The notes under the pieces: generated by a model | Database searches by the model: none | Told to the model about the DNA's origin: nothing | Seen by the model: the letters and a program-made list of their open reading frames with translations, nothing else | DNA from: a virus | Taxonomy: Duplodnaviria; Caudoviricetes | Reading direction: 5' to 3' (one strand) | Virus record (IMG/VR): IMGVR_UViG_3300032295_002982 | Span: 20,266-84,265 of that record | DNA length: 64,000 nucleotides | Shown here: positions 5,768 to 33,373 of the stretch, piece after piece | How the letters are laid out: each line of letters begins with the position of its first letter | Numbering within the stretch: the stretch's first letter is position 1 | Position numbers and translations under genes: made by a program

Positions 5768-5777
5768 TTGTTAGAAT
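5748..5777 (+). promoter_or_regulatory. Possible sigma70-type promoter for the sugar-synthesis genes
   Basis: TTGCAT-18 nt-TAGAAT with extended -10 TG, 10 nt before ATG 5788. Confidence 0.45.
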
Positions 5778-5787
5778 AGGATCAAGC

Positions 5788-6786
5788 ATGAAATTTTTAG
5801 TTACTGGTGGTTACGGTTTGATTGGACACAATGTTGTTCAGCGTCTCAAACAGCAAGATTATGAAGTCAAGATCATTGACAACATGACCAATTATGGTAT
5901 CATTCCACAGAGCGAACTCAACTACCTAATGAGTGAGCGCATGAAGAAACTCAATCACCACGAGTTTTTCCGCGCCAGTATTGAAGAAGGCAATGTGGTT
6001 GACTACATCATGGAAAAAACACAGCCAGAAGTTGTGATTCACTGTGCCAGTTTCCCAAGACAAAAAGTCGTCAACGCTAATCCTGCACACGGTGCTCAGG
6101 TCATGATGGAAGGCTTGATCAATCTCCTGGAGGCTGCAAAGAAACACAAGGTGCAACGTTTTGTGTACATCAGTTCCAGCATGGTGTATGGAGACTTTGA
6201 AGATCAAGTGTTAGAGGATGACGAATGTAATCCACAGGGACAGTACGGTGTCATGAAACTGGCTGGCGAATGGCTGGTGAAAGACTATGCGCGGCGCACT
6301 GGTATGGAATATGTTATCATAAGACCCAGTGCTGTGTATGGTCCTCTAGATGTGGAAGACCGTGTGGTTGCCAAGTTCATGCTGGCAGCCATGCGTGGCG
6401 ATGTACTCAAGGTAAACGGTGCTCAAGAAACCCTGGACTTCACCTACGTTGACGATGCAGCTGACGGCATTGTGGCTGCTGCTACATTGATCATGGCTCG
6501 CAACAACACCTACAACATCACCAAGAGTCACAGTGTGAGTCTGTTACAGGCAGCAGAAATGATTGTTGACATGGTAGGCTCTGGCACAGTGGAAGTGCGT
6601 GACAAAGATGCAGACTTCCCCAGCCGTGGTGCTCTCAACATTGATCGAGCCCGGCGTATCCTGTTTTATGATCCCAAGGTAGACGTTGAGGAAGGTTTCC
6701 AACGCTACTATGATTGGCTCAAGGACAGTCCTTATTGGAACAAACATGCAAATACCCTTCACCAATCTACATCAGCAGTATCTTGA
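5788..6786 (+). CDS. NAD-dependent nucleotide-sugar epimerase/dehydratase (extended SDR)
   Basis: TGGYGLIG Rossmann motif, ISSSMVYG, YGVMK (YxxxK), RPSAVYGP, LDFTYVDD. Confidence 0.92.
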   Translation: MKFLVTGGYGLIGHNVVQRLKQQDYEVKIIDNMTNYGIIPQSELNYLMSERMKKLNHHEFFRASIEEGNVVDYIMEKTQPEVVIHCASFPRQKVVNANPAHGAQVMMEGLINLLEAAKKHKVQRFVYISSSMVYGDFEDQVLEDDECNPQGQYGVMKLAGEWLVKDYARRTGMEYVIIRPSAVYGPLDVEDRVVAKFMLAAMRGDVLKVNGAQETLDFTYVDDAADGIVAAATLIMARNNTYNITKSHSVSLLQAAEMIVDMVGSGTVEVRDKDADFPSRGALNIDRARRILFYDPKVDVEEGFQRYYDWLKDSPYWNKHANTLHQSTSAVS

Positions 6787-7831
6787 TTGTCAGCCAGAAA
6801 TAGATCAGGCCATTGCTGACACAATTGCTAGCACCAGTTTTATCACTGGTCCTGATGTCACACGATTTGAAACTGCCTTTGCTGACTATGTGGGAGCCGA
6901 AGACTGTGCTGCCACTGGCTCTGGTACCACTGCTCTAATTTGTGCTCTGCGAGCCTTGGGCATTGGCCCTGGCGACAAGGTATTGACCACTCCGCACACT
7001 TTTGTTGCTACCACAGAAGCCATTGTGGTGGCAGGTGCTGAACCTGTGTTTGTTGACATTGATCCAGACACACATCTAATAGATCTAGATGATCTCGAAC
7101 GCAAGATAACTCTAGAATGTCGTGCGGTGTTGTTTGTAGACATCTATGGGCAATGCCCCGATCTTGTGAGGCTCAACGATATCTGTACTCGTCATGACTT
7201 GGCCATGATTGAAGATGCTGCGCACAGCATTGGCAACACATTCAATGGTAGGCCCGTGGGTAGTATTGCTGATATTACTTGTTTCAGTTTTAATCCTGTA
7301 AAAAATCTAGGTGCAATGGGCGATGCAGGCTGCTGCACTGGCAGTCGTCGACACATGGAACAGGTGAGAAAATTTAGAGATCACGGACGCACCGGACGCT
7401 ATGACATTGTGGACATTGGTTACAATGCCAGAATTGACAACCTGCAGAGCAACATTGTGTTGGCCAAACTACCACAATTGTCTGCATGGTTGGAACGCAA
7501 GCGCACCATATGTGCCTACTACGACCACAGGTTCAATGACGTGGTTAAAACTGTGCGTCGTGAATCAGGCAACAGTCACAGCTATTATGTGTATGTGATA
7601 CAGACCGAACAGCGTGATCAGCTGCGAGCTTTTCTGGAAAGTCGCGGTATTGGTACCAACATTCACTATGCAACTACCACGCACTTGCAGCCGGCCTATC
7701 AACGCTGGAGCACACCGTGTCCGGTGGCCGAACGCACTGTGCAAGAAATTTTGAGTCTGCCGTGTTGGTACAGCATGAGTGATGACCAAGTTGACTGTGT
7801 GGCTGACACCGTTGTGGAGTTCTTTGCATGA
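6746..7831 (+). CDS. DegT/DnrJ/EryC1/StrS PLP-dependent sugar aminotransferase
   Basis: IEDAAH, SFNPVKNLGAMGDAG (PLP lysine), GYNARID, LSLP. Start taken at MQIPF (6746). Confidence 0.93.
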   Translation: MQIPFTNLHQQYLDCQPEIDQAIADTIASTSFITGPDVTRFETAFADYVGAEDCAATGSGTTALICALRALGIGPGDKVLTTPHTFVATTEAIVVAGAEPVFVDIDPDTHLIDLDDLERKITLECRAVLFVDIYGQCPDLVRLNDICTRHDLAMIEDAAHSIGNTFNGRPVGSIADITCFSFNPVKNLGAMGDAGCCTGSRRHMEQVRKFRDHGRTGRYDIVDIGYNARIDNLQSNIVLAKLPQLSAWLERKRTICAYYDHRFNDVVKTVRRESGNSHSYYVYVIQTEQRDQLRAFLESRGIGTNIHYATTTHLQPAYQRWSTPCPVAERTVQEILSLPCWYSMSDDQVDCVADTVVEFFA

Positions 7832-8703
7832 ACATGTGGCTGGTAGGTGCTGGATATTGGGGCTCGCGCCTGGCACAAGATCTTGAGTTGCTGGGTGTGA
7901 CACCGCGCATCATTGACATCAAGAACGATCAAAGCATTGACGATATTGATACTCTAGATCCTGTGATGCTGGCCACTCCACTGTGGGAACACCACTCACA
8001 GGTGTGTGAGTTACTGCAACGTGGGCACGATGTGTACGTGGAAAAGCCCATGGCAGAAACTCATGACCAAATCTGCCAAATCAAAAAATGTCTTGGTGCG
8101 GATCAACTGCTGATGGTGGGACATTTGTTCATACATCATCCGCAAATGGATGAAATCAAATCCTTGATTGCCACCAACGAAATTGGAGACCTACAACATA
8201 TCAGCAGTCGCAGATTGAACTGGGGCATCTATCAAACCAAGACAGATCCTGTGTTGAGCTTGGCAGTGCATGACATCAGTATTGTCATGGAATTCCTTGA
8301 TCAGCCCATACACTGTGTGCAAGTCAACTCCTGGAATTACAGCAACAATTCTCAAGCTGATCGCGTGTGGTTTTCAGGCAAGGCCGGTATCACATTTGAT
8401 GTTGATGTGAGTTGGGCATGGCCTGTGCGAACAAGACAAACTGTGTTTGTTGGAACATCAGGACAAATTGTTTGGGACCAAGATGCCAACACTGTGACTG
8501 TGTACAAAAACACCGTGCAAAATTCACGTGCGGTGGCCGATCCTGCACCTAGAGTGATTGCATACAGTTATGAGCTCACTCCTTTGCAGGTAGAACTGCG
8601 GCACTGGTTGGATTGTTTGCGCACACGTCAACAGCCTCGCACCGGCATCGCTGCTGCCGAAGCAGTGGCCAACTTAGTTGACCAGATCAAGACTTTAATC
8701 TAG
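7828..8703 (+). CDS. Gfo/Idh/MocA family oxidoreductase
   Basis: VGAGYWG, HDVYVEKPM, LMVGHLF, LAVHDISI; ATGA-coupled to the aminotransferase. Confidence 0.9.
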   Translation: MNMWLVGAGYWGSRLAQDLELLGVTPRIIDIKNDQSIDDIDTLDPVMLATPLWEHHSQVCELLQRGHDVYVEKPMAETHDQICQIKKCLGADQLLMVGHLFIHHPQMDEIKSLIATNEIGDLQHISSRRLNWGIYQTKTDPVLSLAVHDISIVMEFLDQPIHCVQVNSWNYSNNSQADRVWFSGKAGITFDVDVSWAWPVRTRQTVFVGTSGQIVWDQDANTVTVYKNTVQNSRAVADPAPRVIAYSYELTPLQVELRHWLDCLRTRQQPRTGIAAAEAVANLVDQIKTLI

Positions 8704-10893
8704 TTCACCGTAACGGCTGCGGAAACGATCTCTCAGCCATTCCCACCTAAAGCTTTGTTTTAACAGTGCAAGACTGCCTTGGCATTGATTGAAAAATTCA
8801 ACACCGTCGGCGGCACCACGCAACACCCACTCATTGTTTCTACCTTGTGCCTGCGATAACCATGTGCTGAGTCTATAGGCACCATCCACAGTGGGCGATT
8901 GGGATTCAAAATAACTCAGTTTGGCAGTTTCTCTAAATGCAGTGCGCCAGGCATGATAGGGAGTAGTGGCAAAGTCTGCGTGACAACTCAGTATGGGCAC
9001 AGACTCATGTGGAAAACTCAAGGTGTAATCTAGACCAAACTCACCCTGCTGATTGATTTCACGCACACCTTGACAGTTGTACATTACCATACCCATGTGT
9101 CCATACACAAGATCATTTGTGACATTGTGACAATCAAAGATGTAATGTTTGGGCTGTTGTAGATAGTCAGGCACAAAGTCAAAATCAAAACTGGGCTCTA
9201 GTTGAGTCTTGGCAAACACAGCGTAGAACCAAGGTGTGGTACTGACATCAGCAGCAGCTTCAAGCGCCAGTTCCATGCCAGCAACACCATGCACACGCCG
9301 AGCTCGGGCGCATCTTTGCTGTAACAACTGCCAGTTGGCATCGGCTTCAGGTTCATCGTAACTGATGAACACCACATCTTGCAATTGAGCTGGCATCCAG
9401 TTCTGCCGCGATCTATCTATGTTGGCGTAATCATAAAGTTGTTGACGTATATCTACCTGAGCCTGTCTAGGAACGATAACTGTGTTGCCAGCACGATCCA
9501 AAGGTATCATGGCTCTGGTTTCACTGCGCCATAAATTCACAGCAGGCAGCGAGTCAGGCACAGTGTTTGTGCAAAACACTGCGAGTGGTCCTGACCAAGC
9601 AGCGGTTCGCACTGGCACAACATGACTGTCTTGATTGTGTTTTATGCATGGCAAAGGTCTACGCGGCACTGATTGATCAACAAAATTAACTGAATACCAT
9701 TCCAGCAATTCGCTGCGTTCGGCCATGCCAGCAAAGCTGGGCACATGCATGAAAAATGTATCGCCAAACTTTTGATCATCGCTGGCAAACACATGCAACA
9801 TTGTGCTCTGCCATTGCTCAGGGTGCCAGGTAAAATCAAAATTGGTGTAATCACACACCGTGCTGATGATCCAGGCATATTCGTGTTCGCCCACAAGAGT
9901 TTTTGCAATGCGAATCAAGGTGTCGCGATAGTTGTCAAAAAATCTTGCACGTCTATCAGCTACACCCGATGTATTTCCATCCAGATGATCAATTTCAACT
10001 GTGACCGTGGCCACGGCTGTGCTTTTGACCTGCAGCTGATCAAGGTACTTTACTTTGGTGGCACCGGGCACTGTGTACACTGGTCCTCCAGTGCGTTGAT
10101 GTTGTGTGGCAAATTGATAAATGTAGGGCGGTGCTCCTGGATCAGGTACCCATGAAAAATCTAATTCTGCTGTGTCCACTGTGTCAGGCACTGTCCAATG
10201 TGTAAGATCTGGTACCAGTGTGGCACGTGGATAAGACATATACTTGCGATCAGTGGCACCGTCAACATGATATTCCACTGTGGGCATTTTTTCAGCACTC
10301 CACCATTGATTGCCAAACACATATATCAAGGGCGGATCGCCTGGATCAGGTAACCAACTGTAGTCCCATTCACAGTGCTCTAGAGTTTTCCAATGACGGC
10401 TGTGCCACTGTGGCAATTGGGCCACAGGATACGGCATGTATTTTTTCTCTGTGGCACCGGGTGTGTGATATTCAACTGTGGACATGCGATTGGCTGGGTA
10501 CCACTGATTGCCAAACACGTAGATATAGGGCGGATCCATGGGATGCGGTTTCCAGGTGTAATCAAACTCTGCTGCGGGGTGAGTTTTAAAATTACACTGA
10601 TCCGGTCTTAAGGGTATCACACGGTCATGAAAACGATATTCAATGTCTGTTGCTGTGGCAGGAACCAAGAATGTTCCTGAATACTGGTGCCATTGACTGG
10701 GCCACGCATGCACATAGTGTTGTTCCCAAGACACTGGTTCCCAAAGAAAATCAAAGTCACTGTAATCCAATAAGTAATCTACCCACCAGAAATATCTAGT
10801 GCGTGTCAAAGACTGGGCGTGAGCAATTGATTCTGCTGGACGTTCGTGTGCAAAAAGATTTGGTTTTGTTCTGTTGTAAAATACGTCAAACAT
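8695..10893 (-). CDS. 732 aa protein with Trp/Pro-rich repeats and a C-terminal GT-A-like domain
   Basis: Long ORF. The C-terminal part (DVVFISYDEP...RRVHGVAG...AWRTAFRETAKL) is paralogous to 27371-28297. Confidence 0.8.
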   Translation of the reverse strand: MFDVFYNRTKPNLFAHERPAESIAHAQSLTRTRYFWWVDYLLDYSDFDFLWEPVSWEQHYVHAWPSQWHQYSGTFLVPATATDIEYRFHDRVIPLRPDQCNFKTHPAAEFDYTWKPHPMDPPYIYVFGNQWYPANRMSTVEYHTPGATEKKYMPYPVAQLPQWHSRHWKTLEHCEWDYSWLPDPGDPPLIYVFGNQWWSAEKMPTVEYHVDGATDRKYMSYPRATLVPDLTHWTVPDTVDTAELDFSWVPDPGAPPYIYQFATQHQRTGGPVYTVPGATKVKYLDQLQVKSTAVATVTVEIDHLDGNTSGVADRRARFFDNYRDTLIRIAKTLVGEHEYAWIISTVCDYTNFDFTWHPEQWQSTMLHVFASDDQKFGDTFFMHVPSFAGMAERSELLEWYSVNFVDQSVPRRPLPCIKHNQDSHVVPVRTAAWSGPLAVFCTNTVPDSLPAVNLWRSETRAMIPLDRAGNTVIVPRQAQVDIRQQLYDYANIDRSRQNWMPAQLQDVVFISYDEPEADANWQLLQQRCARARRVHGVAGMELALEAAADVSTTPWFYAVFAKTQLEPSFDFDFVPDYLQQPKHYIFDCHNVTNDLVYGHMGMVMYNCQGVREINQQGEFGLDYTLSFPHESVPILSCHADFATTPYHAWRTAFRETAKLSYFESQSPTVDGAYRLSTWLSQAQGRNNEWVLRGAADGVEFFNQCQGSLALLKQSFRWEWLRDRFRSRYGELD
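10020..10600 (-). repeat. Three tandem ~66-68 aa intragenic repeats
   Basis: FDYTWKPHPMDPPYIYVFGNQW / WDYSWLPDPGDPPLIYVFGNQW / LDFSWVPDPGAPPYIYQFATQH, each followed by a GATxxKY motif. Confidence 0.85.
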
Positions 10894-12010
10894 GATAAGA
10901 GTAGATGAAATCTATAATAACACAATGTGGCCTTGGTTGCAACAAAATAGGCCGGGTGTGCGATTGTTTTTTTGTGACCCGCCAGGGCGCACTGATCCCG
11001 ACAGTCTTGGCAATCATGGAACTCTTGTCATGCGAGAAACCAATTTTGTTTTTCTTCACGATCAAGAACCAATTCATTTAGATCTACACAAACCCTTGTT
11101 TGATGAAGTTGCTTGGCGCAATAGAGATTTAAAATACATCATGCATCCTCGCGGACAGTTTGCAGTGGCCAATCATGATGGAGCAGTGATAACAAGCGAA
11201 CTAGGTGAAAACATGGAGGCTCTTTGCAGTATGTATGACTGGCAGGGGCACTATTATTTCTATCATGGCTGGGCCTGTCTTGACTGGTTCCGTGGATATG
11301 ATCGTAGTTTCTTGATACCAAGAGCCAGAGATAGACAACCCAGCCGCACATTCATGAGCCCAAATCGTATCATAGGTGGACGTAGAGATCACAGAGTTTT
11401 GTTTTTGTACAAGGTGTATCGCCTGGGCCTAGCACACAATCACATCAGTGCGCCAAGACAGTGTCCACAAGAACAGGTTGACATACTAGAAGTTGCCAAA
11501 AGGTATAGTGCATACTATCCTGACATTGTGGAAGTTTTACAACAGGCAGATTTACCACGCATATTTGCTGGCGAGGCCACACAAGAAATGACTTCGTGTT
11601 GGTTGACCAACTTTGTCGAGGCTGCAGACAGCTTGATCTATGTGCCTACAGAAACTGTGTATTTTGGCCGCAGATTACACATCACAGAAAAAACTTTCAA
11701 GGCCATAGCACTGGAAATGCCTTTTGTGTTGATGGCTCCTGCTGGTAGTCTAGAATACATGCGTCGTTACGGATTCAAAACTTTTGATTCAATTTGGGAT
11801 GAAAGTTATGATCTTGAAACCAACGATTTTGAGCGACTGAACAAAGTGTCTGATCTCCTAAAGTCAATAGATGACATGAGTCAGCACGAGCGACAACAGT
11901 TATGGCAACACTGTTTGCCTATTGTTGAACACAACTATAATCATTTTTACAAGGGCGGTTTGGCTGACATACTGTGGCCAGAACTCGTCAACATGTTGAA
12001 TGGCATTTAA
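10892..12010 (+). CDS. GT10 (fucosyltransferase)-like protein, TEK family paralogue
   Basis: C-terminal TETVYFG...ITEKTFKAIALEMPFV...YGFKTFDSIWDESYD. Family assignment is inferred from the E..ITEK motif. Confidence 0.6.
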   Translation: MIRVDEIYNNTMWPWLQQNRPGVRLFFCDPPGRTDPDSLGNHGTLVMRETNFVFLHDQEPIHLDLHKPLFDEVAWRNRDLKYIMHPRGQFAVANHDGAVITSELGENMEALCSMYDWQGHYYFYHGWACLDWFRGYDRSFLIPRARDRQPSRTFMSPNRIIGGRRDHRVLFLYKVYRLGLAHNHISAPRQCPQEQVDILEVAKRYSAYYPDIVEVLQQADLPRIFAGEATQEMTSCWLTNFVEAADSLIYVPTETVYFGRRLHITEKTFKAIALEMPFVLMAPAGSLEYMRRYGFKTFDSIWDESYDLETNDFERLNKVSDLLKSIDDMSQHERQQLWQHCLPIVEHNYNHFYKGGLADILWPELVNMLNGI

Positions 12011-13187
12011 CATTGTTTGTGATAAGATTGTAAAAAACCGGCCTTATCCAGCCATGGCAGTTCATCAGGCAAGACCACTCACCCAAGCCTGGCGACAGTT
12101 TGTACAGCATTGGCCACACACTGTACCGCTTGACCTCTACACTTACTGTGAATCACATCATTACCAGATGCATCTGTTTGATCTTGAATCATCGTGGCCA
12201 GAACATAGTTGGTATGCTGTGGCACTGGGCTGGTTTGACTTTGGCATTGATTATTTTGCAATACTGCCAGCTGTGGTAAAACAAGCAGTGCTGGATAAAC
12301 GTTTACGCATACTGTTCTTCTATCACGAAGGTGACAATCCTGCCAACATTAAATCTAGATTAGACCTATTGGCCAACATGCATCACATGCCTGACCAGTG
12401 TTATAGATTTGTCAGCGCAAACACAGCGGCTTCAAACTTGGAAAACTTTGTTTATTTTCCACATCATGAATTGTTGTTTGCGGAAAGAAACCAACATCAT
12501 GAACCCTTGCCTGTGATCACAGGCCCGCGTCGCTGGAAATTCACTGCACTGAATCGCACTCACAAATGGTGGCGTGCCACCATAATGGCAGACCTGCATG
12601 CTCGGCACATACTGGATCAAAGTTATTGGAGTTATGGTGCTGTAGATACTCTACAGGAATCACGCATGGACAATCCGCTACAAGAAGATGTGCTACACAT
12701 AAGATCACAAGTGGATCAATTTGTGCAACATGCACCATATTTCTGCGATGACATGAGCACTGATCAGCACAACGATCACTCGGTAGTGTCTGCATCTGCG
12801 TTTCAAGACAGTTACATTCACATTGTGTTAGAAACACACTTTGATGCTGATCAAAGTCAGGGCACTTTTATCACAGAAAAAACTTTCAAGCCCATAAAAC
12901 ACGGACAACCTTTTGTGATTGCGGGCCCGGCAGGATCTGTGCAAGAACTTCGTAGGTTGGGATATTACACCTTTGACTCAGTGATTGATCACAGCTACGA
13001 CACAGTGCAAGACAACACTCAGCGTTGGTTGATGTTACGCGAAGAAATTGTGAGACTGTGCAGTGCAGATCTTGAATCAATATTTGCTCAGTGCATAGAC
13101 CAGTGCATATATAATCAGACTCTGTTTGTGCGCAATCGCAATGACAGATTACAACAGTTGGACGATCAAATCAATGACCGCAATTAA
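12000..13187 (+). CDS. GT10-like protein, TEK family paralogue
   Basis: LETHFD...FITEKTFKPIKHGQPFV...LGYYTFDSVIDHSYD. Confidence 0.6.
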   Translation: MAFNIVCDKIVKNRPYPAMAVHQARPLTQAWRQFVQHWPHTVPLDLYTYCESHHYQMHLFDLESSWPEHSWYAVALGWFDFGIDYFAILPAVVKQAVLDKRLRILFFYHEGDNPANIKSRLDLLANMHHMPDQCYRFVSANTAASNLENFVYFPHHELLFAERNQHHEPLPVITGPRRWKFTALNRTHKWWRATIMADLHARHILDQSYWSYGAVDTLQESRMDNPLQEDVLHIRSQVDQFVQHAPYFCDDMSTDQHNDHSVVSASAFQDSYIHIVLETHFDADQSQGTFITEKTFKPIKHGQPFVIAGPAGSVQELRRLGYYTFDSVIDHSYDTVQDNTQRWLMLREEIVRLCSADLESIFAQCIDQCIYNQTLFVRNRNDRLQQLDDQINDRN

Positions 13188-16445: not shown

Positions 16446-16540
16446 TTGTAAATGAACGGATCTCGCTTGCGAAGCTCTCGCAGTTTGCGTCGATATCTAA
16501 TTTCCAACATAATTCTATTCCAAAGTTTACGCAACCACAT
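16442..16540 (-). CDS. 32 aa basic peptide MWLRKLWNRIMLEIRYRRKLRELRKRDPFIYK (absent from the ORF track)
   Basis: GGAG RBS. It spans the gap between two operon genes, and its TGA overlaps the carbamoyltransferase ATG (ATGA). Confidence 0.8.
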   Translation of the reverse strand: MWLRKLWNRIMLEIRYRRKLRELRKRDPFIYK

Positions 16541-22302: not shown

Positions 22303-23561
22303 TTCAATGCTGCCAATTCAGGCAAAATATCCAGTATGCTTTCATTTCTTATGTTGTCCAGCTCATGTGTTTTTTTCCAAAACTGTGGAATCAACCCGCT
22401 GTTGTCAGTGGCGTGCATGAACGTCATGGCTGATTTGAAACCTTGTGTGGCTCTGCCTAAAGGGTCGCCTGCCTGATCAAGCCATTGCAAATGACTGTGA
22501 TACACTGAGGCTAGCTGTGATTTATACTGCTCAGGGGCAATGTCTATGCGGTAGTGGGGCGGATCCTGTAGTATGTTGACATTGAGATCTTGCGCACGAA
22601 TCAGTCCTTGCTGTACCCAGACACGATGAAACTGCGGCAGGTGCAAAGCGTTCATGATGCTGAGTGTGGGGCTGATGTAAAAATCAACCTCAGGACAAAT
22701 GCGCAACATATCTCTGCGATTTTGTTCTACCTGGGTCCAGTTTGTGCCTTTGCGAATGTATTCGGCACGTGGTCCCATGGCATCTAGACTGGCGCCCACA
22801 GCCACTGATTGAAATTTTTTCCAATAATCAAACACACTGCGACCTTTTAGATCTATGTGTGTGAAGTTGGTGTTGTAGATCAATCGCACATCAAAGCGTC
22901 CGCGACGCTCTAACTCGTCTAGGATACGATAATGTTCTTCCATTAACAGGGGTTCGCCACCAGCAAAATAAATTTGCTCCACATAATCAAGATGTGGTTC
23001 CAGCTGCGACCACATGTCTGTTGCTGTGCGGCCAGCATAGTTTAACACAGTGTTCTTTTCTTTCCAGTCACCGCCGGCCAGCCGGGCCTGATCTTGATAC
23101 CATTGCGAGCTAAAGATATGCCCGCAACTACGACAACGTAGGTTACATAGGTTTGAAAAACGAATGTCCCAGTAGATCATTTCAAACGGATTTGCTTCCA
23201 GCTTCTTGACATGATGTCCGTGATGTTTGTTGGCACTGCGACGACCACTGAAGAAGCCTGCTGCTTCCTGTTCGTAGCAACGACGGCAGGCGTCGCTTTT
23301 GACTTCATTCAACATGTTGTGTCTTAACTGCTGCATGGGTTCATCACGCCAGATTTCTTCCAGTGTCTGACTGCGACAGTTGCCCACACTGTTGGCCATC
23401 TCTGAATGACAGCAGGGATAGGCTTCGCCAGTGGGATAGGCATGCAAGTGGATCCAAGGATAGATGCAAAATGTCTTGGATTCTTTCAACAAGAATTCTT
23501 CACGAGCAGTGAGATCAACTGGCCGTACTAGATCTGCGCTGTTGTAGTTATAGTTGGCCAT
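22299..23561 (-). CDS. Radical SAM protein with N-terminal SPASM/twitch-like domain
   Basis: FCIYPW...PCC...CRRC; CNLRCRSC; GGEPL. Start taken at MANYNY (23561). Confidence 0.9.
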   Translation of the reverse strand: MANYNYNSADLVRPVDLTAREEFLLKESKTFCIYPWIHLHAYPTGEAYPCCHSEMANSVGNCRSQTLEEIWRDEPMQQLRHNMLNEVKSDACRRCYEQEAAGFFSGRRSANKHHGHHVKKLEANPFEMIYWDIRFSNLCNLRCRSCGHIFSSQWYQDQARLAGGDWKEKNTVLNYAGRTATDMWSQLEPHLDYVEQIYFAGGEPLLMEEHYRILDELERRGRFDVRLIYNTNFTHIDLKGRSVFDYWKKFQSVAVGASLDAMGPRAEYIRKGTNWTQVEQNRRDMLRICPEVDFYISPTLSIMNALHLPQFHRVWVQQGLIRAQDLNVNILQDPPHYRIDIAPEQYKSQLASVYHSHLQWLDQAGDPLGRATQGFKSAMTFMHATDNSGLIPQFWKKTHELDNIRNESILDILPELAALK

Positions 23562-24879
23562 ACCATTCTGCAAGGTTGGGGAAAGTGGCTGCAAAGTTCT
23601 TGCCGCGACGTTGATCATATTGCTGATAAAACTTGCGAAAATCCCCACGCAGTGTGGGCAAATCAAAAGCATCACTGTGCGGTGTTTTGACCACGTCAAG
23701 ATAGTCTATGAGTCTCTGCACATGATTGCGTTCGTGTTCCTGCAACATGGCATGGTTGTGCCAGGTATCTAACCACTGTTGCAGTCGGTCACGATGCTGC
23801 ATCCTGATGTGATCTGGTAACACCAAGGGCGATTGAAAACTAGGGAACCGTAATATGTTGAGTGTGAAGTTGGGAAAGTCCGCACCCCACTGAGACTTCA
23901 GTGTCAAGAGATAGGTCAAAAACTCAGGTAGACTTTCCAAACACAGTGCATTGATAGTGTTCATGACATGCAATCCACGCAAGCGACCACTGCGTATCAA
24001 CAACATCATGTTGCTTTCCCACTGTTGCCAATCTAGACCATCACGAATGTATTCAGCCTGTGCAGTCATGCTTTCGTTGCTGGTATATAGATCAAGTTCA
24101 ATGCCATCACAGGCATCAAGTAAACGTTGTATCTTGTCAGACTCCATGCTCAAGTTTGAGTTAATGGCCAAGCGTGTGCGACTGCGGCCAGGGTTGTCAC
24201 GGAACCAATCAATCAATTGCCAGGTATAGCCTGACATCAGGGGTTCACCTCCGGTGATGCGTAGCTCGTCTAGAGTTTGGTGGAGGTCAGATTCCCACCA
24301 CTGAAAAAACGCTTCCACATACGGATTGCTCTCACCGTATTTGTAACGCTGACTACTGTCGTGAGTGTGAGTAAAATGATTGCGACCATCTGATTCCAGG
24401 CCCACATAGGCTCCGTGAACACGAATATCTCGAACCCAAGTGCTACTAAAAGCAGGATTACAATAAGAGCAAGCCAGTTGGCAAGTGCGATCAAAGGATA
24501 TCTCAAGTGTTTTAAGATTGAAGTCTTGGTCGGAATCAGATGTGGAGGCATGTAGTAGGTCCTTGATAGGGTAAATTTTTGATTTGTACACACGGTCGCT
24601 GATGGCGTCGCGACCCATGTCTTCGATTCGCCAGCAGTATTCGCAACCGGCAGGTCGTTGACCCTGTTGCATCATGTGTCTGTCGCGTTTTTTTTCCGCG
24701 GTGTTGTGCAGTAGCCTAGGGTTGGCACGGACTTTATCAGTGTCCACCAAATGGGCCGGAGGATGATGGCATGATGTAGTCATGCCGGAACCCAACCAAA
24801 TGGTAGCATTGTACCATTTGGCTGCACAAAAACTTGGACTTATTGAGTCCAACTTGGTTTTGAATTCTTGATCAGTCAT
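23548..24879 (-). CDS. Radical SAM protein with N-terminal Cys-rich domain (second subtype)
   Basis: FCAAKW...SCHHP...CEYC; CQLACSYC; GGEPL. Start taken at MTDQEF (24879). Confidence 0.9.
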   Translation of the reverse strand: MTDQEFKTKLDSISPSFCAAKWYNATIWLGSGMTTSCHHPPAHLVDTDKVRANPRLLHNTAEKKRDRHMMQQGQRPAGCEYCWRIEDMGRDAISDRVYKSKIYPIKDLLHASTSDSDQDFNLKTLEISFDRTCQLACSYCNPAFSSTWVRDIRVHGAYVGLESDGRNHFTHTHDSSQRYKYGESNPYVEAFFQWWESDLHQTLDELRITGGEPLMSGYTWQLIDWFRDNPGRSRTRLAINSNLSMESDKIQRLLDACDGIELDLYTSNESMTAQAEYIRDGLDWQQWESNMMLLIRSGRLRGLHVMNTINALCLESLPEFLTYLLTLKSQWGADFPNFTLNILRFPSFQSPLVLPDHIRMQHRDRLQQWLDTWHNHAMLQEHERNHVQRLIDYLDVVKTPHSDAFDLPTLRGDFRKFYQQYDQRRGKNFAATFPNLAEWYGQL

Positions 24880-25975
24880 TGAGCCATTCAGCCAACTGTG
24901 CAGGCATTGCTGCACGTTGAGCCTGATTGTATTCCTTTAGATGCTGGTAATTGTACTTACATACATCTAGTGAAGCCTGCAAGAAATCCAGAGCACCCGT
25001 ACGCACAATGTCAGCTATCACTGCAATGGTACGATTGATTCTATCTGTGGGATCGTCTATGAGATCAAAACTTTCATCTATGAGATGATCAAAAGTTCTA
25101 AATCCTGCACTGTGTAGATCACGATAATACCCACGATTGCTGGCCACAACAAATGGATGCAGCATGATCATGGGCTTCCAAATTTTTTCTGTTCTAAAAC
25201 TGCAGGGGTAATCGTATATGGTTTCTGTCACCACTGAGAAACAGGTATCAACATAGGCCTCGGGGTTTATGATGGCATCTCCCCAGGTGTTGTTGAACAA
25301 AAAATGTTTGGCGAAACTGTAGCCCTGAACCTTGTCAAGATTGGGCACCGCTCGTTCAATTTCATATTGGGCTGGTAACAATCTAACTTCTTCAGTGGGC
25401 GCAGTTTTTAACACACTGGTCCAGGCAAGATCCACATTGCTTTGCAGATTGGTCCACAGTGCGCGATCCAACAGCCCAAGATCACGCATGCTGTCAATCA
25501 TGTATTTGCGATGTGGCCTAAGTCTGCCGTTGAGAAACAAGAAGTCATAAGGTTTAGCGGCTGTGCGTACTCTGTCACTGTGACTGTGTGCTGCTTGATT
25601 TTCCAAGAAATCAACAATGTTGGTGAAGTAACAGTCAACGCTGAGTTTGCGATACCCTGGTTCAAGATCACCTGATGTAATCAAACGTATAGCGCCCGAT
25701 GCCACTAGTTCAGTGATGCGTAGTCGGCGAAGTTGCAACAATGCAGTCTGTGAACCTTCTGCGGGATTACAAAAAATAATCCTGCCTGGGTATTGTTGTG
25801 CGTAGTCACAGATCAAGTTATGGTTTTCTTTCAACTGCACACGACCAATGATGTAGAAACTGTTTGGATCAAAATCTATATCGCGAAACTGCCAGAACGT
25901 TTGATCAGCATAGGGCTTCAAAAGATCAAACACTTCGTCCCACTCATCTACAACTATTCTATGTTTTTCTAGCAT
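24872..25975 (-). CDS. GT10-like protein, TEK family paralogue
   Basis: FSVVTET...RTEKIWKPMIMLHPFV...AGFRTFDHLIDESFD. Confidence 0.6.
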   Translation of the reverse strand: MLEKHRIVVDEWDEVFDLLKPYADQTFWQFRDIDFDPNSFYIIGRVQLKENHNLICDYAQQYPGRIIFCNPAEGSQTALLQLRRLRITELVASGAIRLITSGDLEPGYRKLSVDCYFTNIVDFLENQAAHSHSDRVRTAAKPYDFLFLNGRLRPHRKYMIDSMRDLGLLDRALWTNLQSNVDLAWTSVLKTAPTEEVRLLPAQYEIERAVPNLDKVQGYSFAKHFLFNNTWGDAIINPEAYVDTCFSVVTETIYDYPCSFRTEKIWKPMIMLHPFVVASNRGYYRDLHSAGFRTFDHLIDESFDLIDDPTDRINRTIAVIADIVRTGALDFLQASLDVCKYNYQHLKEYNQAQRAAMPAQLAEWLND

Positions 25976-27377
25976 AATATTCGCACTCTTTCCACCACGC
26001 TTGCATTTCAGGAAACGTGGCTAAAAAATCTGTTCCTCGACGCCGATCATGTTCGGCAAAGAAACGATAAAAATCTGCTTTGTTTTGTTGCAGGTATTCT
26101 GCAGGTAATTTTTGCCCGTCACGCATCCAGGCAATGTCGCGATCTAGTCGAGTGAGTTCGTAGTCTTTGAATCCTCGGAAAGGTTCTTCCGCAGTTTCAA
26201 GTTGCCGCAACATCCAGGCCCAAAGATGTTCCAATTTATCAACATAACTTTCTGGCAACAGTTGTAGGCTTTGCCACGTGGGCTGTCGCAATACTGGAGT
26301 ATCAAACCACACACGTTGATATGTTTCACTGTAGGTTTTTCGCAGTCCCAGTATGCCAGCAAACAGACTGTCAAGGCTGGTCACACTGAGGTTGTTCATT
26401 GTGACAATAAAGGTAATGCTGCTGCATTCAGGAACCTCGGTCAAGAACTGATTGACTCGCTCCCACAGTAGATCAAAATCTAGACCGTGCCTGATGTATT
26501 CGGCTTTTGGCCCCCAGGCATCAAGACTAACATACTGCATGAAATGTTCAATATGTCCTGGCTTACAAAGTTGTTTGACCTTGCTGATATATCTATCCCA
26601 CAGTCCCTGCTCCACACTGAAGTTGCTGGTGACATTGAGATGCAGTTCAGGATTGGGATTTTCCAAAACATAGTCAAACACACGATAGGTATTGCGATCC
26701 ATGAGTGGTTCGCCACCAGTCATACGAAAATGTTTTAATTTTGGATACAAAGTTGGCCACCATGCCCAGAATGCTTCTACATATGGGTTATATTCGCGAA
26801 CAGGTATAGGCTTGCGAGGACCGTTAAAATGACTCGGGTCATTATGAGGTTCATTAGTAGGGTAGGCGCCCCATCGACGGGCTTCGTCCTCCCACGACGA
26901 ACTAAACTGTGGACTACAGTAACTACACTTAAGATTACAAGCATGATTAAAATTAACTTCCACATAGGAAGGAATAACATCTTCGTCTCCAGTTGAATTT
27001 ACTATGTTATCAAAATGTTCAGCTGCCCAGGGTTCTCCAGATCTAAAATGCCTATCGCTGAGTTTGTTGTTGTCCTCCATGGCCCAGCAATAACTGCACT
27101 CCGCAGGACGTTGTTGCTGTAACATCAACTGGCGCTGTTGTTTTTTGTGTTGAGTATTGTGTAGAGCGCTGGGATTGCGTTGAATATCCTCAACGTTGAT
27201 TCTGTGCAAAGGCGGATGATAACAACTGTTGTTCATGCCAGTGGCAAGATGCAGACTCACCTGCTGCCATTTGGCCAAGCACAGCGCCGGTCCAAGATTG
27301 TTTTGCATGTTTTCTGCTGAGTACAAAAACTTGCTTTTTACTCCCACAGTCTCATCGCCAGGATTTTGCATTACCAT
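25959..27377 (-). CDS. Radical SAM protein with N-terminal Cys-rich domain (second subtype)
   Basis: LCLAKW...SCYHP...CSYC; CNLKCSYC; GGEPL. Confidence 0.9.
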   Translation of the reverse strand: MVMQNPGDETVGVKSKFLYSAENMQNNLGPALCLAKWQQVSLHLATGMNNSCYHPPLHRINVEDIQRNPSALHNTQHKKQQRQLMLQQQRPAECSYCWAMEDNNKLSDRHFRSGEPWAAEHFDNIVNSTGDEDVIPSYVEVNFNHACNLKCSYCSPQFSSSWEDEARRWGAYPTNEPHNDPSHFNGPRKPIPVREYNPYVEAFWAWWPTLYPKLKHFRMTGGEPLMDRNTYRVFDYVLENPNPELHLNVTSNFSVEQGLWDRYISKVKQLCKPGHIEHFMQYVSLDAWGPKAEYIRHGLDFDLLWERVNQFLTEVPECSSITFIVTMNNLSVTSLDSLFAGILGLRKTYSETYQRVWFDTPVLRQPTWQSLQLLPESYVDKLEHLWAWMLRQLETAEEPFRGFKDYELTRLDRDIAWMRDGQKLPAEYLQQNKADFYRFFAEHDRRRGTDFLATFPEMQAWWKECEYYARKT

Positions 27378-28297
27378 CCTTCTTGCTGCCTGATCACATC
27401 AATCTCTCGTGTCATGATGCCGCGATTGTACCAGTTGCTGCGGTAATGCTGTTTGAAAAACTCACTGTGTTCAGCTTCAAACAAGCACATAGGCAAATCC
27501 AACTGTGTGGCCAAATCCACGCCCACACGATTGGCCAAGATTCTAGCATCACTAGTGGCCACTGTGAGCCAAAGTTCATGCAACACATCAAAGTCTCTAA
27601 CCTGTACATGATCCCATGCCGTGAGCATGGTCATGTATGTGCCTTGTCTGGCTCCGGCTATGGCCCAGATACCGTTGTCAGCATCCATGCCCACATTGTG
27701 CCATATGGTGAGATGGTCAAGATTTCTTTGATGTACCTGTTGTTTGAAGTCTTCAACAGTGGGTCGACGTCCACGGTTTAGACACATTTTTACACCTTCC
27801 CTAAAACCTGCTCGCCAGGCCTGCTCTGGTGTGGCATTGGGATAGGTGGTTGAGTAACAGTCATGCATGGCCCAGTATCTAGGGTCAAAACAAAACTCCA
27901 CGGCTGTGTCATCACTGCCGTCACTGGCTTCGTGAGTGCGCATGTTCATCACAAAGTCTTGTGTCCAGCAGCTGATGCCACCGTTGCCATACATCAATCC
28001 GTTGATGTGATTACGACTCCGCCAGCGAAATACGCAATCGCGGTTAGTGTCATCCAGAACGAGCTGTTGGTTAAAAAACTCAGCGTCAGGAATGTTATCA
28101 CCATCAACAAGCACAAAGCGATCAGTGGTCGACGCCATCGCTGCCGCTTTGTGAGCGGCGTCAGACCCCGCAACACCATCCACTCGTCGTGCCCAGGGTA
28201 CCATGTTCCGAATACGTGCCCAATTTTCCTCAGCATTAGGTTCATCATAGGTCAAAAATATACAATCAAGGTCAGCTATATCAATCTGTTTGGTCAC
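27371..28297 (-). CDS. GT-A fold (GT2-like) glycosyltransferase
   Basis: CIFLTYDEP...RVDGVAG...FVLVDGDN (DxD)...AWRAGFREGVKM. Confidence 0.6.
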   Translation of the reverse strand: MTKQIDIADLDCIFLTYDEPNAEENWARIRNMVPWARRVDGVAGSDAAHKAAAMASTTDRFVLVDGDNIPDAEFFNQQLVLDDTNRDCVFRWRSRNHINGLMYGNGGISCWTQDFVMNMRTHEASDGSDDTAVEFCFDPRYWAMHDCYSTTYPNATPEQAWRAGFREGVKMCLNRGRRPTVEDFKQQVHQRNLDHLTIWHNVGMDADNGIWAIAGARQGTYMTMLTAWDHVQVRDFDVLHELWLTVATSDARILANRVGVDLATQLDLPMCLFEAEHSEFFKQHYRSNWYNRGIMTREIDVIRQQEGW

Positions 28298-28616
28298 TGC
28301 GTAGACTCCATTGGGTATTGGGTTGATGCTGTGAAACCACTATGGCAACATCACAAGGATGACAAGGTGTTCCTGTGCCTGGTTTCAATTTTGGCAAGCT
28401 AGGCAATGCCAGGGGAATGATCTTGCCATCGCGTATGCGTATTCGCATGCTGCTGCGATGATAGGTTTCAGCATCAATTGTGATGTATGTACCTGGTAGA
28501 TCTTCCATGCTGTAGCTTATTGGCTTTCCAGTTGTAGGATCATAGTACAATCTAAAAAACACCGGAGCCGGCTCCGCTGCGTCATGTAAGATTTTCCAAA
28601 ACTCTTCTGGTGTCAT
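28281..28616 (-). CDS. Hypothetical protein
   Basis: Start taken at MTPEEFW (28616), ATGA-coupled to the upstream gene. Confidence 0.7.
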   Translation of the reverse strand: MTPEEFWKILHDAAEPAPVFFRLYYDPTTGKPISYSMEDLPGTYITIDAETYHRSSMRIRIRDGKIIPLALPSLPKLKPGTGTPCHPCDVAIVVSQHQPNTQWSLRSDQTD

Positions 28617-29371
28617 GGCTGCCAAGTCTTGATATGATAATGAAATGCACCCCATTGCGCCACAGTTTGTATTCGCAAGGGATCAGTTTCCCACACCAAT
28701 TCACGACTCCAGTCAGCCTGCGTGGTTCCGGCATGGTGCTGTTTCATATGAACAATGCGTGGGTACGTGACTGTTGTTGGCAGTGTGCATTTGTCAACAC
28801 CGATGATTTGTGCAGCCATGGCATATACCAAATCAGTGCTGGGTGTTTCTTCTGCAAACTTGATCATCTGACGAAACTGTGACCAGTTGTGGAAAATTTG
28901 ATTTACCAATCGGAAAAAATCTCGTGCAGTTTCACTGCGCCGCCAGTAGGTGATGGCATTGTAAACGTCAGGCAAATGATTTTCACGAAAACAGCGACGA
29001 TAAACAGCAACATCACTGACTTCGTCACGCCAGTTCCTACAGCCTGTGCTGACAACAACATCGCGATGACGGAACATGGTCCACCAGTGATCTATGGCAC
29101 TAGCTATCAGCATGTCTGCTTCCAGCTTGACAGTTTCGCGATAGGGTGTAAGCCTAAACAGTTGCCCTTCGTTGGCATAGGGATTGTCACGATCTGGCAC
29201 AATACGACGCACATGATCAAACACAGGATCTGCTGATTCATGGTCTGTTACCAAACAGATTGACACATCTGGATGCCAGTGTCTAATGCTGTGCGCCAAA
29301 CGTGTGGCACAGGCCACATAGTCAACTGTGTCTGTGTTTACTGCAACAATGAGATATCCTTGTTCAATCAT
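28613..29371 (-). CDS. GT-A fold (GT8/nucleotide-diphospho-sugar transferase-like) protein
   Basis: GYLIVAVN...DYVACA..LA.SI; TVKLEADM; paralogue of the next gene. Confidence 0.6.
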   Translation of the reverse strand: MIEQGYLIVAVNTDTVDYVACATRLAHSIRHWHPDVSICLVTDHESADPVFDHVRRIVPDRDNPYANEGQLFRLTPYRETVKLEADMLIASAIDHWWTMFRHRDVVVSTGCRNWRDEVSDVAVYRRCFRENHLPDVYNAITYWRRSETARDFFRLVNQIFHNWSQFRQMIKFAEETPSTDLVYAMAAQIIGVDKCTLPTTVTYPRIVHMKQHHAGTTQADWSRELVWETDPLRIQTVAQWGAFHYHIKTWQP

Positions 29372-30170
29372 GAGCTGCGATTATGGCTTCTAGACTGGCT
29401 TTGCCCATGGCATGAAAATCCTGATTCACAATGGCATGACGACGTTGGCGCTTGTCTGCAGTGGTATAACATATTTCGTAATGGTCTTGCGATTTCTGCA
29501 CGAGCAGGTCACTGGTTAGCACTGTCACAAGGTTCCAAGGCACAGTGTCAAATCTGGGTGTGTGTCCGTTGGCTATACCCAAGGCAATTGACAGTGCAAA
29601 ATCATTTCTGTAGGTGCGCTTGGTTATGCCATAAAGATCGCAGTAGTGTTGCCAGTTGTTGCGAATCATGTTCATGCATGCAAACACAGTTTGTGCATAC
29701 TGACTCTTTCTAAACATCACCACTGTGGCCCAGGCCATGGGCATTTTATAATTGCCAAAAGTATTCAATCCTGTGAGTTCCTGTCCTCTGGCAGCATCCA
29801 CTGCTGTACCATGACACAAAAAGTCTTGATTGCTGGCCAGCAATGTAGACAATTGATCACTGGCCACAACATAATCAGCGTCCAATAACAACGTCTGTTG
29901 CCACGGTGACAATTCATATACTTCGGGTCTGCCAGCATTGTGCCATGTCACGGTAGCGTTGTAATCTTCAAAGTATCTAGTGCCGCCTGATTCAGCAGAT
30001 GCTGTAATCACACAATCCACTGCGCACAGTCTGGGATCTTGTGGTTGATTGGTTATCACGGCTGTGGGAAGACCTAGATGTCTCTTGATATTGGCCGCAC
30101 TCCAACAGGCCATGCCCACGTAGTCGGTGGCTTCGTTGTTGAAGGCAAGAATCACTGCACCCGTGGTCAT
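29364..30170 (-). CDS. GT-A fold (GT8-like) glycosyltransferase
   Basis: GAVILAFNN...DYV; TLLLDADY (DxD); WATVVMF; RNDFALSIA. Confidence 0.65.
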   Translation of the reverse strand: MTTGAVILAFNNEATDYVGMACWSAANIKRHLGLPTAVITNQPQDPRLCAVDCVITASAESGGTRYFEDYNATVTWHNAGRPEVYELSPWQQTLLLDADYVVASDQLSTLLASNQDFLCHGTAVDAARGQELTGLNTFGNYKMPMAWATVVMFRKSQYAQTVFACMNMIRNNWQHYCDLYGITKRTYRNDFALSIALGIANGHTPRFDTVPWNLVTVLTSDLLVQKSQDHYEICYTTADKRQRRHAIVNQDFHAMGKASLEAIIAAHD

Positions 30171-30472
30171 CGTTGACTGTTTGTCTGTTCAAACTCCACA
30201 TGCCAGGCATTCATTTGTTCCTGGTAATGTTGCTGTGCTTGAATCAAAAACACCTGACGATCAATGCGGATTGGATTGTCATAGAGATCCGCAAGATAGA
30301 TATCATCTGTTGGCCAAGTTTTTACAAATGCCAGGAGTTCAGGTGTGATTTGAAACAGTCCGCCCTGATGTGCTAGAATCAATCGGGCTTGGTATTTTTC
30401 TTTTAACACACGCCGGGCTGCTGCATGATCAAATCTTGCCCGTGAGTATTCATAGATATCATCTGTAGTCAT
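30167..30472 (-). CDS. Hypothetical protein, first gene of the 16 kb minus-strand operon
   Basis: 101 aa ORF, ATGA-coupled to the next gene. Confidence 0.75.
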   Translation of the reverse strand: MTTDDIYEYSRARFDHAAARRVLKEKYQARLILAHQGGLFQITPELLAFVKTWPTDDIYLADLYDNPIRIDRQVFLIQAQQHYQEQMNAWHVEFEQTNSQR

Positions 30473-33365: not shown

Positions 33366-33373
33366 TATTTATA
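33366..33373 (-). promoter_or_regulatory. T4-type late promoter TATAAATA
   Basis: Exact T4 late consensus 25 nt upstream of the tail fibre ATG. Confidence 0.7.

Follow-up and report, generated by a model that had tools for sequence, protein, structure and literature searches.

The 64,000-nt stretch analyzed here (the window; bases 20266-84265 of IMG/VR record IMGVR_UViG_3300032295_002982) carries, beside its tail-fibre genes, an island of genes for sugar metabolism, candidate glycosyltransferases (GTs) and radical S-adenosylmethionine (SAM) proteins. The source record is an 84-kb viral contig that CheckV rates as only 21% complete, which indicates a jumbo phage. The original prediction had described the island as 25 tightly packed genes next to the tail-fibre block, forming a self-contained pathway to a highly modified glycan. 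The packing is indeed tight, and we count 24 open reading frames (ORFs) of at least 100 aa between 5758 and 30472 (Table 1). Most overlap by 4-26 nt, and a few overlap more, depending on the choice of start codon. They fall into three units: plus-strand genes for a short-chain dehydrogenase/reductase (SDR), a DegT aminotransferase and a Gfo/Idh/MocA oxidoreductase (5758-8703), followed by a 732-aa gene on the minus strand; a plus-strand trio (10892-14211); and a 16-kb minus-strand array (30472 to 14206) whose sole intergenic gaps are 81 and 54 nt. The array continues the minus strand of the structural genes, in which T4-type baseplate hub, gp25-like and wedge proteins come first; next are the genes of a 4910-aa virion protein, a further protein of 201 aa, the 611-aa fibre-like protein and the 322-aa protein, and then the island. 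The position on the tail-fibre side is therefore correct.

Using one radical SAM protein as query, we collected 160 related IMG/VR loci; gene presence and median identities were counted over 80 related loci and copy numbers over 47 full loci. One gene order, rather than scattered genes, was found across the 160 loci, genomes of 250-349 kb included, which excludes chance clustering. It begins with the 732-aa gene, two GT10-like genes and an amidinotransferase gene. The convergent array then runs carbamoyltransferase, X (a protein family described below), radical SAM, (GT10-like), three radical SAMs, GT10-like, radical SAM, and ends with the genes of the 308-, 124-, 252-, 268-, 101-, 322- and 611-aa proteins. 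In five relatives of 250-349 kb (two of them at least 95% complete), the whole block is kept from DUF2201 and ThyX through the fibre genes. The variable parts are the Gfo/Idh/MocA gene, an S11 peptidase, the 200- and 221-aa genes, a DegT paralogue and extra radical SAM copies, of which a 21-kb locus holds five to eight in total. A 21-kb stretch of a 359-kb contig (L096; JGI 3300071643) contains at least eight genes annotated as radical SAM, three of them extra copies between the carbamoyltransferase and the divergent unit, and this points to cassette-wise expansion.

All five radical SAM proteins of the island, predicted as such before, match NF033640 (N_Twi_rSAM, twitch domain-containing radical SAM protein; curated cut-off 170 bits) over nearly the full model, with scores of 288-387 bits. 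In an alignment that includes Vibrio phage K566, C9, C28, C74 and C77 are invariant and are followed by C123/C127/C130 (CxxxCxxC) and GGEP. The Pfam domains run SPASM before Radical_SAM, that is, with the auxiliary four-cysteine cluster N-terminal. Radical SAM 4 is 32% identical to a 472-aa paralogue, and the true start of radical SAM 3 probably lies near 23490-23560. One-to-one orthologues share 67-72% identity and stand in a fixed order in 47/47 full loci, which indicates five distinct functions. Public data contain >7,500 protein clusters related to radical SAM 2, so the clade that bears the island is abundant. Weak secondary NCBIfam matches name the peptide maturases YhhB, XyeB, PapB, SkfB, ScmE and mycofactocin; they are matches at the level of the core only, and the nucleotide-acting viperin and MoaA score similarly. 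The literature searched yielded no characterized radical SAM enzyme with an N-terminal twitch domain and no known substrate for NF033640.

Between radical SAM 1 and the carbamoyltransferase lies X, which, like the secreted S11 peptidase, was absent from the genes originally listed. The family has 583 representative relatives (clusters) and is present in exactly one copy in 47/47 full loci. A profile search against the PDB returned no match for it, a feature search of the ESM Atlas gave nothing useful, and tblastn against phage records found no match, so that X was found in no cultured phage. The AlphaFold2 (AF2) model of X has a pLDDT of 93.5, and Foldseek found no match to it in the PDB at E <= 0.001. 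VIA aligned residues 64-171 with helical bundles (Z 8.7) and the protein with cyclophilin-like barrels and Pictet-Spenglerases (Z about 8); neither was taken as homology. H124, N156, H160 and K224 are invariant; such His, Lys and Asn positions, in two LNxL(H/C)HxxE-like helices, point to an active site or a metal site. Seven relatives (P0330, P0332, P0338, P0343, P0359, P0370 and P0388) have X fused to an N-terminal domain of ~375-415 aa that has no Pfam match and no similarity to any window protein. On a phage-like contig (L099), X is fused to an unassigned domain and lies between radical SAMs and the carbamoyltransferase. The carbamoyltransferase adjoins X and a radical SAM there, and adjoins a radical SAM in L088 and in the Ralstonia jumbo phage RsoM2USA. 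In three contigs of a Bdellovibrionota metagenome-assembled genome (L100-102), X has an N_Twi radical SAM on either side, and housekeeping genes surround the trio. Because the linkage holds across phage and Bdellovibrionota loci, radical SAM plus X, often with the carbamoyltransferase, is the tightest functional unit. X and its constant radical SAM linkage are the new element of this analysis.

The sugar-nucleotide genes bear out their predicted classes, with significant Pfam scores for the SDR epimerase, DegT and Gfo/Idh/MocA proteins. The nearest NCBIfam models are dTDP-glucose 4,6-dehydratase for the SDR (133 bits, below the equivalog cut-off), PseC for DegT (253 bits, below the cut-off) and UDP-GlcNAc 3-dehydrogenase for Gfo/Idh/MocA (77 bits); for the carbamoyltransferase the nearest named relative is NodU, again below the equivalog cut-off. 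These relatives are sugar enzymes or natural-product O-carbamoyltransferases acting on hydroxyls, including those of sugars, and because all of them score below equivalog cut-offs, the exact sugars cannot be named. The SDR is 63-79% identical across five related genomes. A 24-30% identical paralogue takes the DegT position in four of the five near-complete relatives (none was detected in G002), and Gfo/Idh/MocA is absent at the corresponding position in 5/5.

The two tailoring enzymes were likewise confirmed. The carbamoyltransferase has both Pfam domains above cut-off (Carbam_trans_N 131 bits, Carbam_trans_C 165 bits), and NovN is nearest to it in the PDB (E 4e-50), followed by GdmN and TobZ. 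The amidinotransferase gave PDB profile matches to AGAT (E 8e-18), HsvA (6.5e-14), StrB1 (9e-13) and SxtG (5e-12), in three stretches that correspond to the N-terminus, middle and C-terminus of the fold. Its GGISCCTQD aligns with the catalytic-Cys motif GGFHCWTCD of AGAT and its GHGDA with PHIDA, and these residues are invariant among 11 orthologues; we take the roles of the catalytic Cys and of the triad His to be those of AGAT. With a median identity of 84%, its gene is better conserved than any other in the island; the protein has no Pfam family at E <= 0.01, which is consistent with a divergent, virus-specific branch. Its match to phrog_25854 was the sole hit when the unassigned ORFs were compared with PHROGs, NCBIfam and Pfam. 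The 200- and 221-aa proteins carry the motifs for which they had been called SGNH and second Rossmann proteins; neither has a family match, and they occur in 5/80 and 1/80 loci. The S11 carboxypeptidase, which has a hydrophobic signal-like N-terminal segment and sits at the convergent junction of the island, occurs in only 1/80 loci and probably stands outside the pathway. Among the proteins of the conserved set we found no transmembrane segments, and a signal-like N-terminus is present only in this variable peptidase.

Enzymes of this kind also tailor antibiotics. StrB1, TobZ, NovN and GdmN are the nearest characterized relatives, DegT-family aminotransferases and Gfo/Idh/MocA dehydrogenases are also found among such relatives, and twitch radical SAM enzymes such as BtrN act in aminoglycoside pathways. 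The island might then make a diffusible natural product, that is, a free aminoglycoside-, aminocyclitol- or nucleoside-like molecule produced during infection, and the authors who described cyanophage S-SCSM2R spoke of 'antibiotic synthesis genes' (PMC12801897). We regard this as very improbable. The Pfam results for the window ORFs contain no scaffold synthase, exporter or self-resistance gene, although no targeted search for these was made; eight GT-like genes favour an oligosaccharide over a pseudo-di- or trisaccharide; Gfo, a key step of the cyclitol route, is missing in the relatives; and the island is linked to structural genes.

Eight GTs had been proposed: four GT10-like, two GT2-like and two GT8-like. 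Paralogue groups were obtained from all-against-all BLAST of the window proteins. The AF2 model of GT10-like paralogue 2 (pLDDT 88, pTM 0.87) matched GT-B-fold proteins throughout the listed Foldseek results, nearly all of them glycosyltransferases. In VIA comparisons over ~265 residues, it scored Z 13.2 against the Helicobacter pylori alpha1,3-fucosyltransferase (FucT; 2nzw) and 11.1 against FUT9. The model also scored 13.2 against the T4 DNA beta-glucosyltransferase (BGT; 1c3j), 11.2 against the T4 alpha-glucosyltransferase and 12.1 against exostosin. The modelling thus supports a predicted GT-B fold for the four paralogues, so that at least four of the candidates have the expected type of fold. 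The family alignment with orthologues shows R192, K294 and K297 to be invariant and E293 (of TEK) nearly so. This Arg and the TEK...K, which lie in the C-terminal domain, resemble the GDP-fucose-binding Arg195/Glu249/Lys250 of HpFucT. The label GT10-like is supported by motif; membership of GT10 itself was not borne out, with no PF00852 match in 31 members and no PDB profile match. By structure, BGT scores as high as HpFucT. The ESM Atlas returned unnamed viral clusters, with PF00852 neighbours at 0.78 serving as a lead only. No match to the GT10-like protein was found by tblastn against phage records, and the protein was found in no cultured phage. These are the fastest-evolving genes of the island (31-48% identity; median 31% for paralogue 3). 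Set against the 84% of the amidinotransferase, this would fit diversifying surface glycans.

For the remaining candidates, the predicted motifs are present and family support is weak. The 308-aa protein has an invariant DGD motif; its orthologues give PF13641 matches in 5/11 cases (best E 0.019, far below the cut-off), and the family has no PDB sequence match. Residues 506-697 of the 732-aa protein match the 308-aa protein by blastp (E 6e-16). The 732-aa protein is conserved among relatives and has no Pfam, PHROG, NCBIfam or PDB sequence match. The 252- and 268-aa proteins share GT8-like motifs and an invariant A-D pair within an LEADM segment. Neither Pfam (20 members) nor the PDB gave a match for their family, and the homologues retrieved with the alignment were all unannotated orthologues. 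Against Escherichia coli WaaJ/WaaO, hhalign gave a probability of 0.35%, with the N-terminal and DxD-like segments in register.

The tie with BGT bears on another possible product, a DNA base decorated with a modified, positively charged sugar that would confer nuclease resistance and help to pack a very large genome. The GT-B model fits the T4 glucosyltransferases as well as it fits GT10. ThyX is the neighbour of the island in 5/5 relatives; in Marine virus AG-345-D19 (L090 15401-15925), it has an amidinotransferase gene on one side and a carbamoyltransferase-like gene on the other. An amidinotransferase was also reported for Campylobacter phages CP220/CPt10, together with 11-12 genes for radical SAM proteins (PMC2853527). 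Searches with positive controls, run on the five relatives in place of the window's own incomplete genome, found PF00303 (ThyA-like hydroxymethylase) in 0/5 and PF01702 (TGT/DpdA) in 0/5, and the score of ThyX places it within the thymidylate synthase equivalog. These results lower the case for DNA modification. The larger side of the island borders structural genes rather than genes of nucleotide metabolism, and the invariant R...TEK motif is, as we understand it, common to fucosyltransferases and not to BGT. We consider a DNA target quite unlikely.

The reading that we favour, with a probability of roughly 0.4, is cytoplasmic assembly and radical tailoring of an amino-, guanidino- and carbamoyl-decorated glycan that would most likely be placed on the virion fibres. 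That the island as a whole carries out sugar or glycan chemistry is a good deal safer and is, in our judgment, probable. The conserved, membrane-free enzyme set, shared by many uncultured jumbo phages of one large T4-like clade, would build an oligosaccharide in the cytoplasm of the infected cell. The SDR and the aminotransferase, together with variable oxidoreductases, would supply keto- and amino-deoxy nucleotide sugars; the amidinotransferase would make a guanidino group out of an amino group; and a hydroxyl would be carbamoylated by the O-carbamoyltransferase. Joining the sugars would fall to the GT10-like GT-B paralogues, probably along with the GT-A-like proteins. The five anciently diverged radical SAM proteins would work with X, each performing one non-redundant, oxygen-independent C-H activation step on a sugar residue (oxidation, epimerization, deoxygenation or C-C/C-X coupling). 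The most likely destination of the product would be virion surface proteins encoded on the same strand; among these, the first acceptor candidates are the neighbouring 322-aa protein, rich in Thr, and the 611-aa fibre-like protein. We hold it possible, if doubtful, that the N-terminal-twitch radical SAMs and X form a previously unrecognized radical glycan-editing system by which a very abundant clade of aquatic jumbo phages, and some bacteria, would furnish their tail fibres with guanidino- and carbamoyl-sugars that bear radical-installed modifications. The chemistry of this core could be categorically new.

The virion is favoured as target on account of the fibre genes on the same strand, the 322-aa neighbour and the detection of the S-SCSM2R amidinotransferase in CsCl-purified virions (PMC12801897). 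The 322-aa protein contains 18.6% Thr (28.6% Ser plus Thr), 0.6% Lys and 0.9% Glu, and its gene is conserved beside the island in relatives. A Thr-rich protein with hardly any charged residues is a plausible O-glycan acceptor. A different recipient would be the host envelope: on the inner side of the membrane, the soluble enzymes could modify lipid-linked intermediates of the host's own lipopolysaccharide (LPS) or capsule. Such remodelling might block superinfection or prevent re-adsorption of progeny. Surface glycans typically involve carbamoyltransferases of the NodU type and enzymes resembling PseC/WbpB; the GTs of the LPS core, WaaG among them, are peripheral proteins without transmembrane helices; and bacterial NF033640 loci resemble surface-polysaccharide loci. 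The same interpretation was given for GT-rich pelagimyophage host-recognition clusters with radical SAM cassettes (PMC7029224). In the five relatives, the initiating transferases PF02397 (Bac_transf; 0/5) and PF00953 (Glycos_transf_4; 0/5) and the flippase PF01943 (Wzx; 0/5) were not found, a polymerase is not encoded, and the island has none of these. With no membrane segments either, a phage-encoded lipid-linked export is probably absent, although host machinery could serve. A conserved 25-kb investment inside the late structural strand would be unusual for exclusion, and the order is conserved over very many phages whose hosts are probably diverse. We rate remodelling of the host envelope, and the exclusion purposes suggested for it, as unlikely.

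Several observations weigh against a radical-tailored glycan on the virion. No acceptor, glycan or modified residue was observed. No sugar-activating nucleotidyltransferase was found for the island and several of its sugar genes are variable, so that the pathway cannot be called self-contained as first proposed. Four of the eight GT candidates are without significant support, and the fold of the GT10-like family ties with that of BGT, as described above. The absence of membrane proteins is compatible with a host target too, because soluble GTs can act on host lipid-linked acceptors. TATAAATA occurs once, at 33366-33373, 26 nt upstream of the start of the 611-aa protein, and a single occurrence is the chance expectation. 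SPASM/twitch enzymes are often peptide maturases. In one bacterial locus (L117 8506-11288), the neighbours of an NF033640 member are a PqqD-like protein and a C13 peptidase, a hint that some members may act on peptides, and no GT lies within 10 kb of the Bdellovibrionota radical SAM-X-radical SAM unit. Because of these last two loci, the part of the original prediction that made the radical SAMs glycan tailoring enzymes is tentative; its sugar enzyme families stand, as does a GT fold for at least four candidates. Of the three outcomes that were to refute that prediction, two, namely GTs devoid of GT folds and genes strewn at random in relatives, did not come about.

The same loci speak for radical protein maturation, in which the N_Twi radical SAMs and X would modify a protein or peptide, for example by crosslinking or epimerizing residues of a fibre protein, that the GTs then glycosylate. 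In the Bdellovibrionota genome the module stands alone, PqqD is a peptide-recognition element, the weak secondary matches include YhhB, XyeB, PapB and SkfB, and X is fused to an unassigned ~390-aa domain in some relatives. Those matches are equalled in score by viperin and MoaA, however, and the invariant His, Lys and Asn of X are typical of an enzyme or metal site and not of a substrate. No precursor-like small ORF or RiPP recognition element was seen in the phage island. A pqqA candidate for a radical SAM substrate was set aside; it lies ~22 kb away and has no link to the island. Three of the four bacterial N_Twi radical SAM loci examined are rich in glycosyltransferases or sugar genes: Rhodoblastus has three NF033640 radical SAMs with a GT4, another locus has three with two GT2, and in L117 the very member flanked by PqqD lies with a carbamoyltransferase, GLF (UDP-galactopyranose mutase), DegT and a GHMP kinase. 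Protein maturation is on balance improbable as the role of these enzymes, and we retain glycan tailoring as the preferred reading.

The surroundings of the island add few regulatory cues. Promoter and terminator scans gave no excess marking operon borders; a Sigma-70-like TTTACT-17-TATAAT lies at 30506-30478, just upstream of the 101-aa gene. The divergent 732-aa (minus strand) and 372-aa (plus strand) ORFs overlap by 2 nt at their starts (10892/10893) and leave no intergenic promoter space, so that either the true starts lie further downstream or the promoters lie within coding sequence. On the far side, a 250-aa protein without assigned function is kept upstream of ThyX in 5/5 relatives. The 4910-aa ORF matches a 3324-position PHROG family of virion structural proteins, with further PHROG matches to baseplate wedge/tail-fibre connector and hub/lysozyme-like segments, and is by these matches a predicted giant baseplate- or fibre-associated protein.

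Table 1. Genes of the island and its neighbours, in window coordinates.
Feature	Length (aa)	Position	Strand	Remarks
DUF2201 metallopeptidase/VWA protein		1992-3269	+	Upstream of ThyX in 5/5 relatives
ThyX		4843-5529	+	Island neighbour
NDP-sugar SDR (4,6-dehydratase/epimerase type)	342	5758-6786	+	Pfam Epimerase E 4e-46
DegT/PseC-type sugar aminotransferase	381	6686-7831	+	Pfam DegT E 1e-102; likely start ATG 6746
Gfo/Idh/MocA oxidoreductase	291	7828-8703	+	Pfam N and C3 domains, E 8.5e-07; variable gene
732-aa protein	732	8695-10893	-	C-terminal ~200 aa paralogous to 308-aa protein; N-terminal ~500 aa unassigned
Predicted GT-B, GT10-like paralogue 1	372	10892-12010	+	Paralogy; in family alignment
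Predicted GT-B, GT10-like paralogue 2	395	12000-13187	+	AF2-modelled member
Amidinotransferase (AGAT/StrB1 family)	361	13126-14211	+	PDB profile search; start probably ATG 13174
Secreted S11 DD-carboxypeptidase		14206-14967	-	Pfam Peptidase_S11 E 8e-37
O-Carbamoyltransferase (NodU/CmcH/TobZ type)	493	14964-16445	-	Pfam Carbam_trans_N and Carbam_trans_C
Family X	365	16527-17624	-	No family assignment
N_Twi radical SAM 1	430	17599-18891	-	NF033640 288 bits
SGNH-like candidate	200	18878-19480	-	Motif only: N-terminal GDS in MIYICGDSF
Rossmann-like candidate	221	19477-20142	-	Motif only: G-x-x-G-x-x-G-like N-terminus
Predicted GT-B, GT10-like paralogue 3	342	20139-21167	-	Paralogy; in family alignment; likely start ATG 21095
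N_Twi radical SAM 2	405	21085-22302	-	NF033640 342 bits
N_Twi radical SAM 3		22299-23699	-	NF033640 387 bits, match from residue 74
N_Twi radical SAM 4, second subtype		23548-24915	-	NF033640 297.5 bits
Predicted GT-B, GT10-like paralogue 4	367	24872-25975	-	Paralogy; in family alignment
N_Twi radical SAM 5, second subtype		25959-27377	-	NF033640 311 bits
GT-A/GT2-like candidate	308	27371-28297	-	Invariant ...L.DGDN.P
Conserved protein	124	28281-28655	-	No family; in 56/80 loci
GT8-like candidate	252	28613-29371	-	Motif level only; paralogue of 268-aa protein
GT8-like candidate	268	29364-30170	-	Motif level only; paralogue of 252-aa protein
Conserved protein, first gene after fibre genes	101	30167-30472	-	No family match
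Thr/Ser-rich protein	322	30527-31495	-	No family match
Tail-fibre-like protein	611	31505-33340	-	PHROG 972 tail fibre proximal subunit and related families
Single ORF, virion structural protein family	4910	34141-48873	-	PHROG E 1.5e-291

A 14-kb part of the island had no Megablast match among 50,697 phage records. The best cultured match is RsoM2USA (MG752970.1, 123467-128228; L119), in which the N_Twi radical SAM RsoM2USA_202 lies three genes from a 46%-identical carbamoyltransferase, RsoM2USA_199. That stretch also has two unassigned ~284-aa genes, all are annotated as hypothetical, and neither X nor the GT10-like family was found in this phage, which makes a tractable model for the radical SAM and carbamoyltransferase pair. 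Vibrio phages K566/K567 have four N_Twi radical SAMs, and together with RsoM2USA they offer an experimental entry to the radical SAM family. Cyanophages and pelagiphages often carry Nol-like carbamoyltransferases (136 records), and S-SCSM2R carries a 31%-identical amidinotransferase.

In the literature searched, we found no description of a phage island of this composition, and the original statement that no characterized system of the kind was known holds; similar, uncharacterized cassettes have been reported. The pelagimyophage host-recognition cluster holds GTs and radical SAM cassettes (PMC7029224), S-SCSM2R has DegT, radical SAM and amidinotransferase genes regarded as 'antibiotic' genes (PMC12801897), and CP220/CPt10 belong here by description (PMC2853527). 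Like the island, the pelagimyophage and cyanophage clusters belong to T4-like aquatic myophages and place GTs, radical SAM cassettes and DegT beside tail-fibre genes, with an amidinotransferase and Nol-like carbamoyltransferases. Those clusters were described as hypervariable, whereas the island is larger, has a fixed order over 160 loci and includes X and the GT10-like family.

Compared with aminoglycoside and aminocyclitol tailoring (StrB1, TobZ, BtrN, StsC/DegT), the island has the same enzyme families side by side, but its radical SAM twitch domain is N-terminal and not C-terminal, its GTs are many and its context is that of phage structural genes. With the GT10 enzymes H. pylori FucT and FUT9, the GT10-like family shares the predicted GT-B fold and the Arg/TEK...K residues at an identity of only 8-13%. 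A phage GT-B enzyme is common to T4 DNA glucosylation and the island, but the latter is far larger, has another motif set and occurs in relatives that have no hydroxymethylase.

Glycans are also carried by the fibrils of giant viruses. Virion glycosylation has been reported in mycobacteriophages (Freeman et al. 2023, PMC10527164). Like the island, virion-glycosylating viruses have soluble GTs and sugar-nucleotide enzymes near structural genes; the known systems manage with ordinary sugar enzymes and a single GT or a few, and in the present case virion glycosylation is predicted from gene content. We know of no virion-glycosylation system that includes a radical SAM protein, an amidinotransferase or a carbamoyltransferase. 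Virus-encoded glycosylation is known from few systems with ordinary enzymes, and the island, present in thousands of environmental sequences, combines at least five radical SAM proteins of a family without a known substrate, X, a divergent amidinotransferase and a putative new GT-B family. If the virion is what is decorated, phages would use oxygen-independent radical chemistry to build their surface, with consequences for host recognition, environmental stability and the mining of carbohydrate-modifying enzymes. Radical glycan editing, if true, would assign a function to NF033640 and to X for the first time, and would be the first case of a viral surface glycan edited by radical SAM enzymes. 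The island adds to virus-encoded glycosylation; the analysis of family X and the negative results on DNA modification and lipid carriers in relatives are new, and the island shows five to eight diverged NF033640 copies in one phage operon, with X as a dedicated partner.

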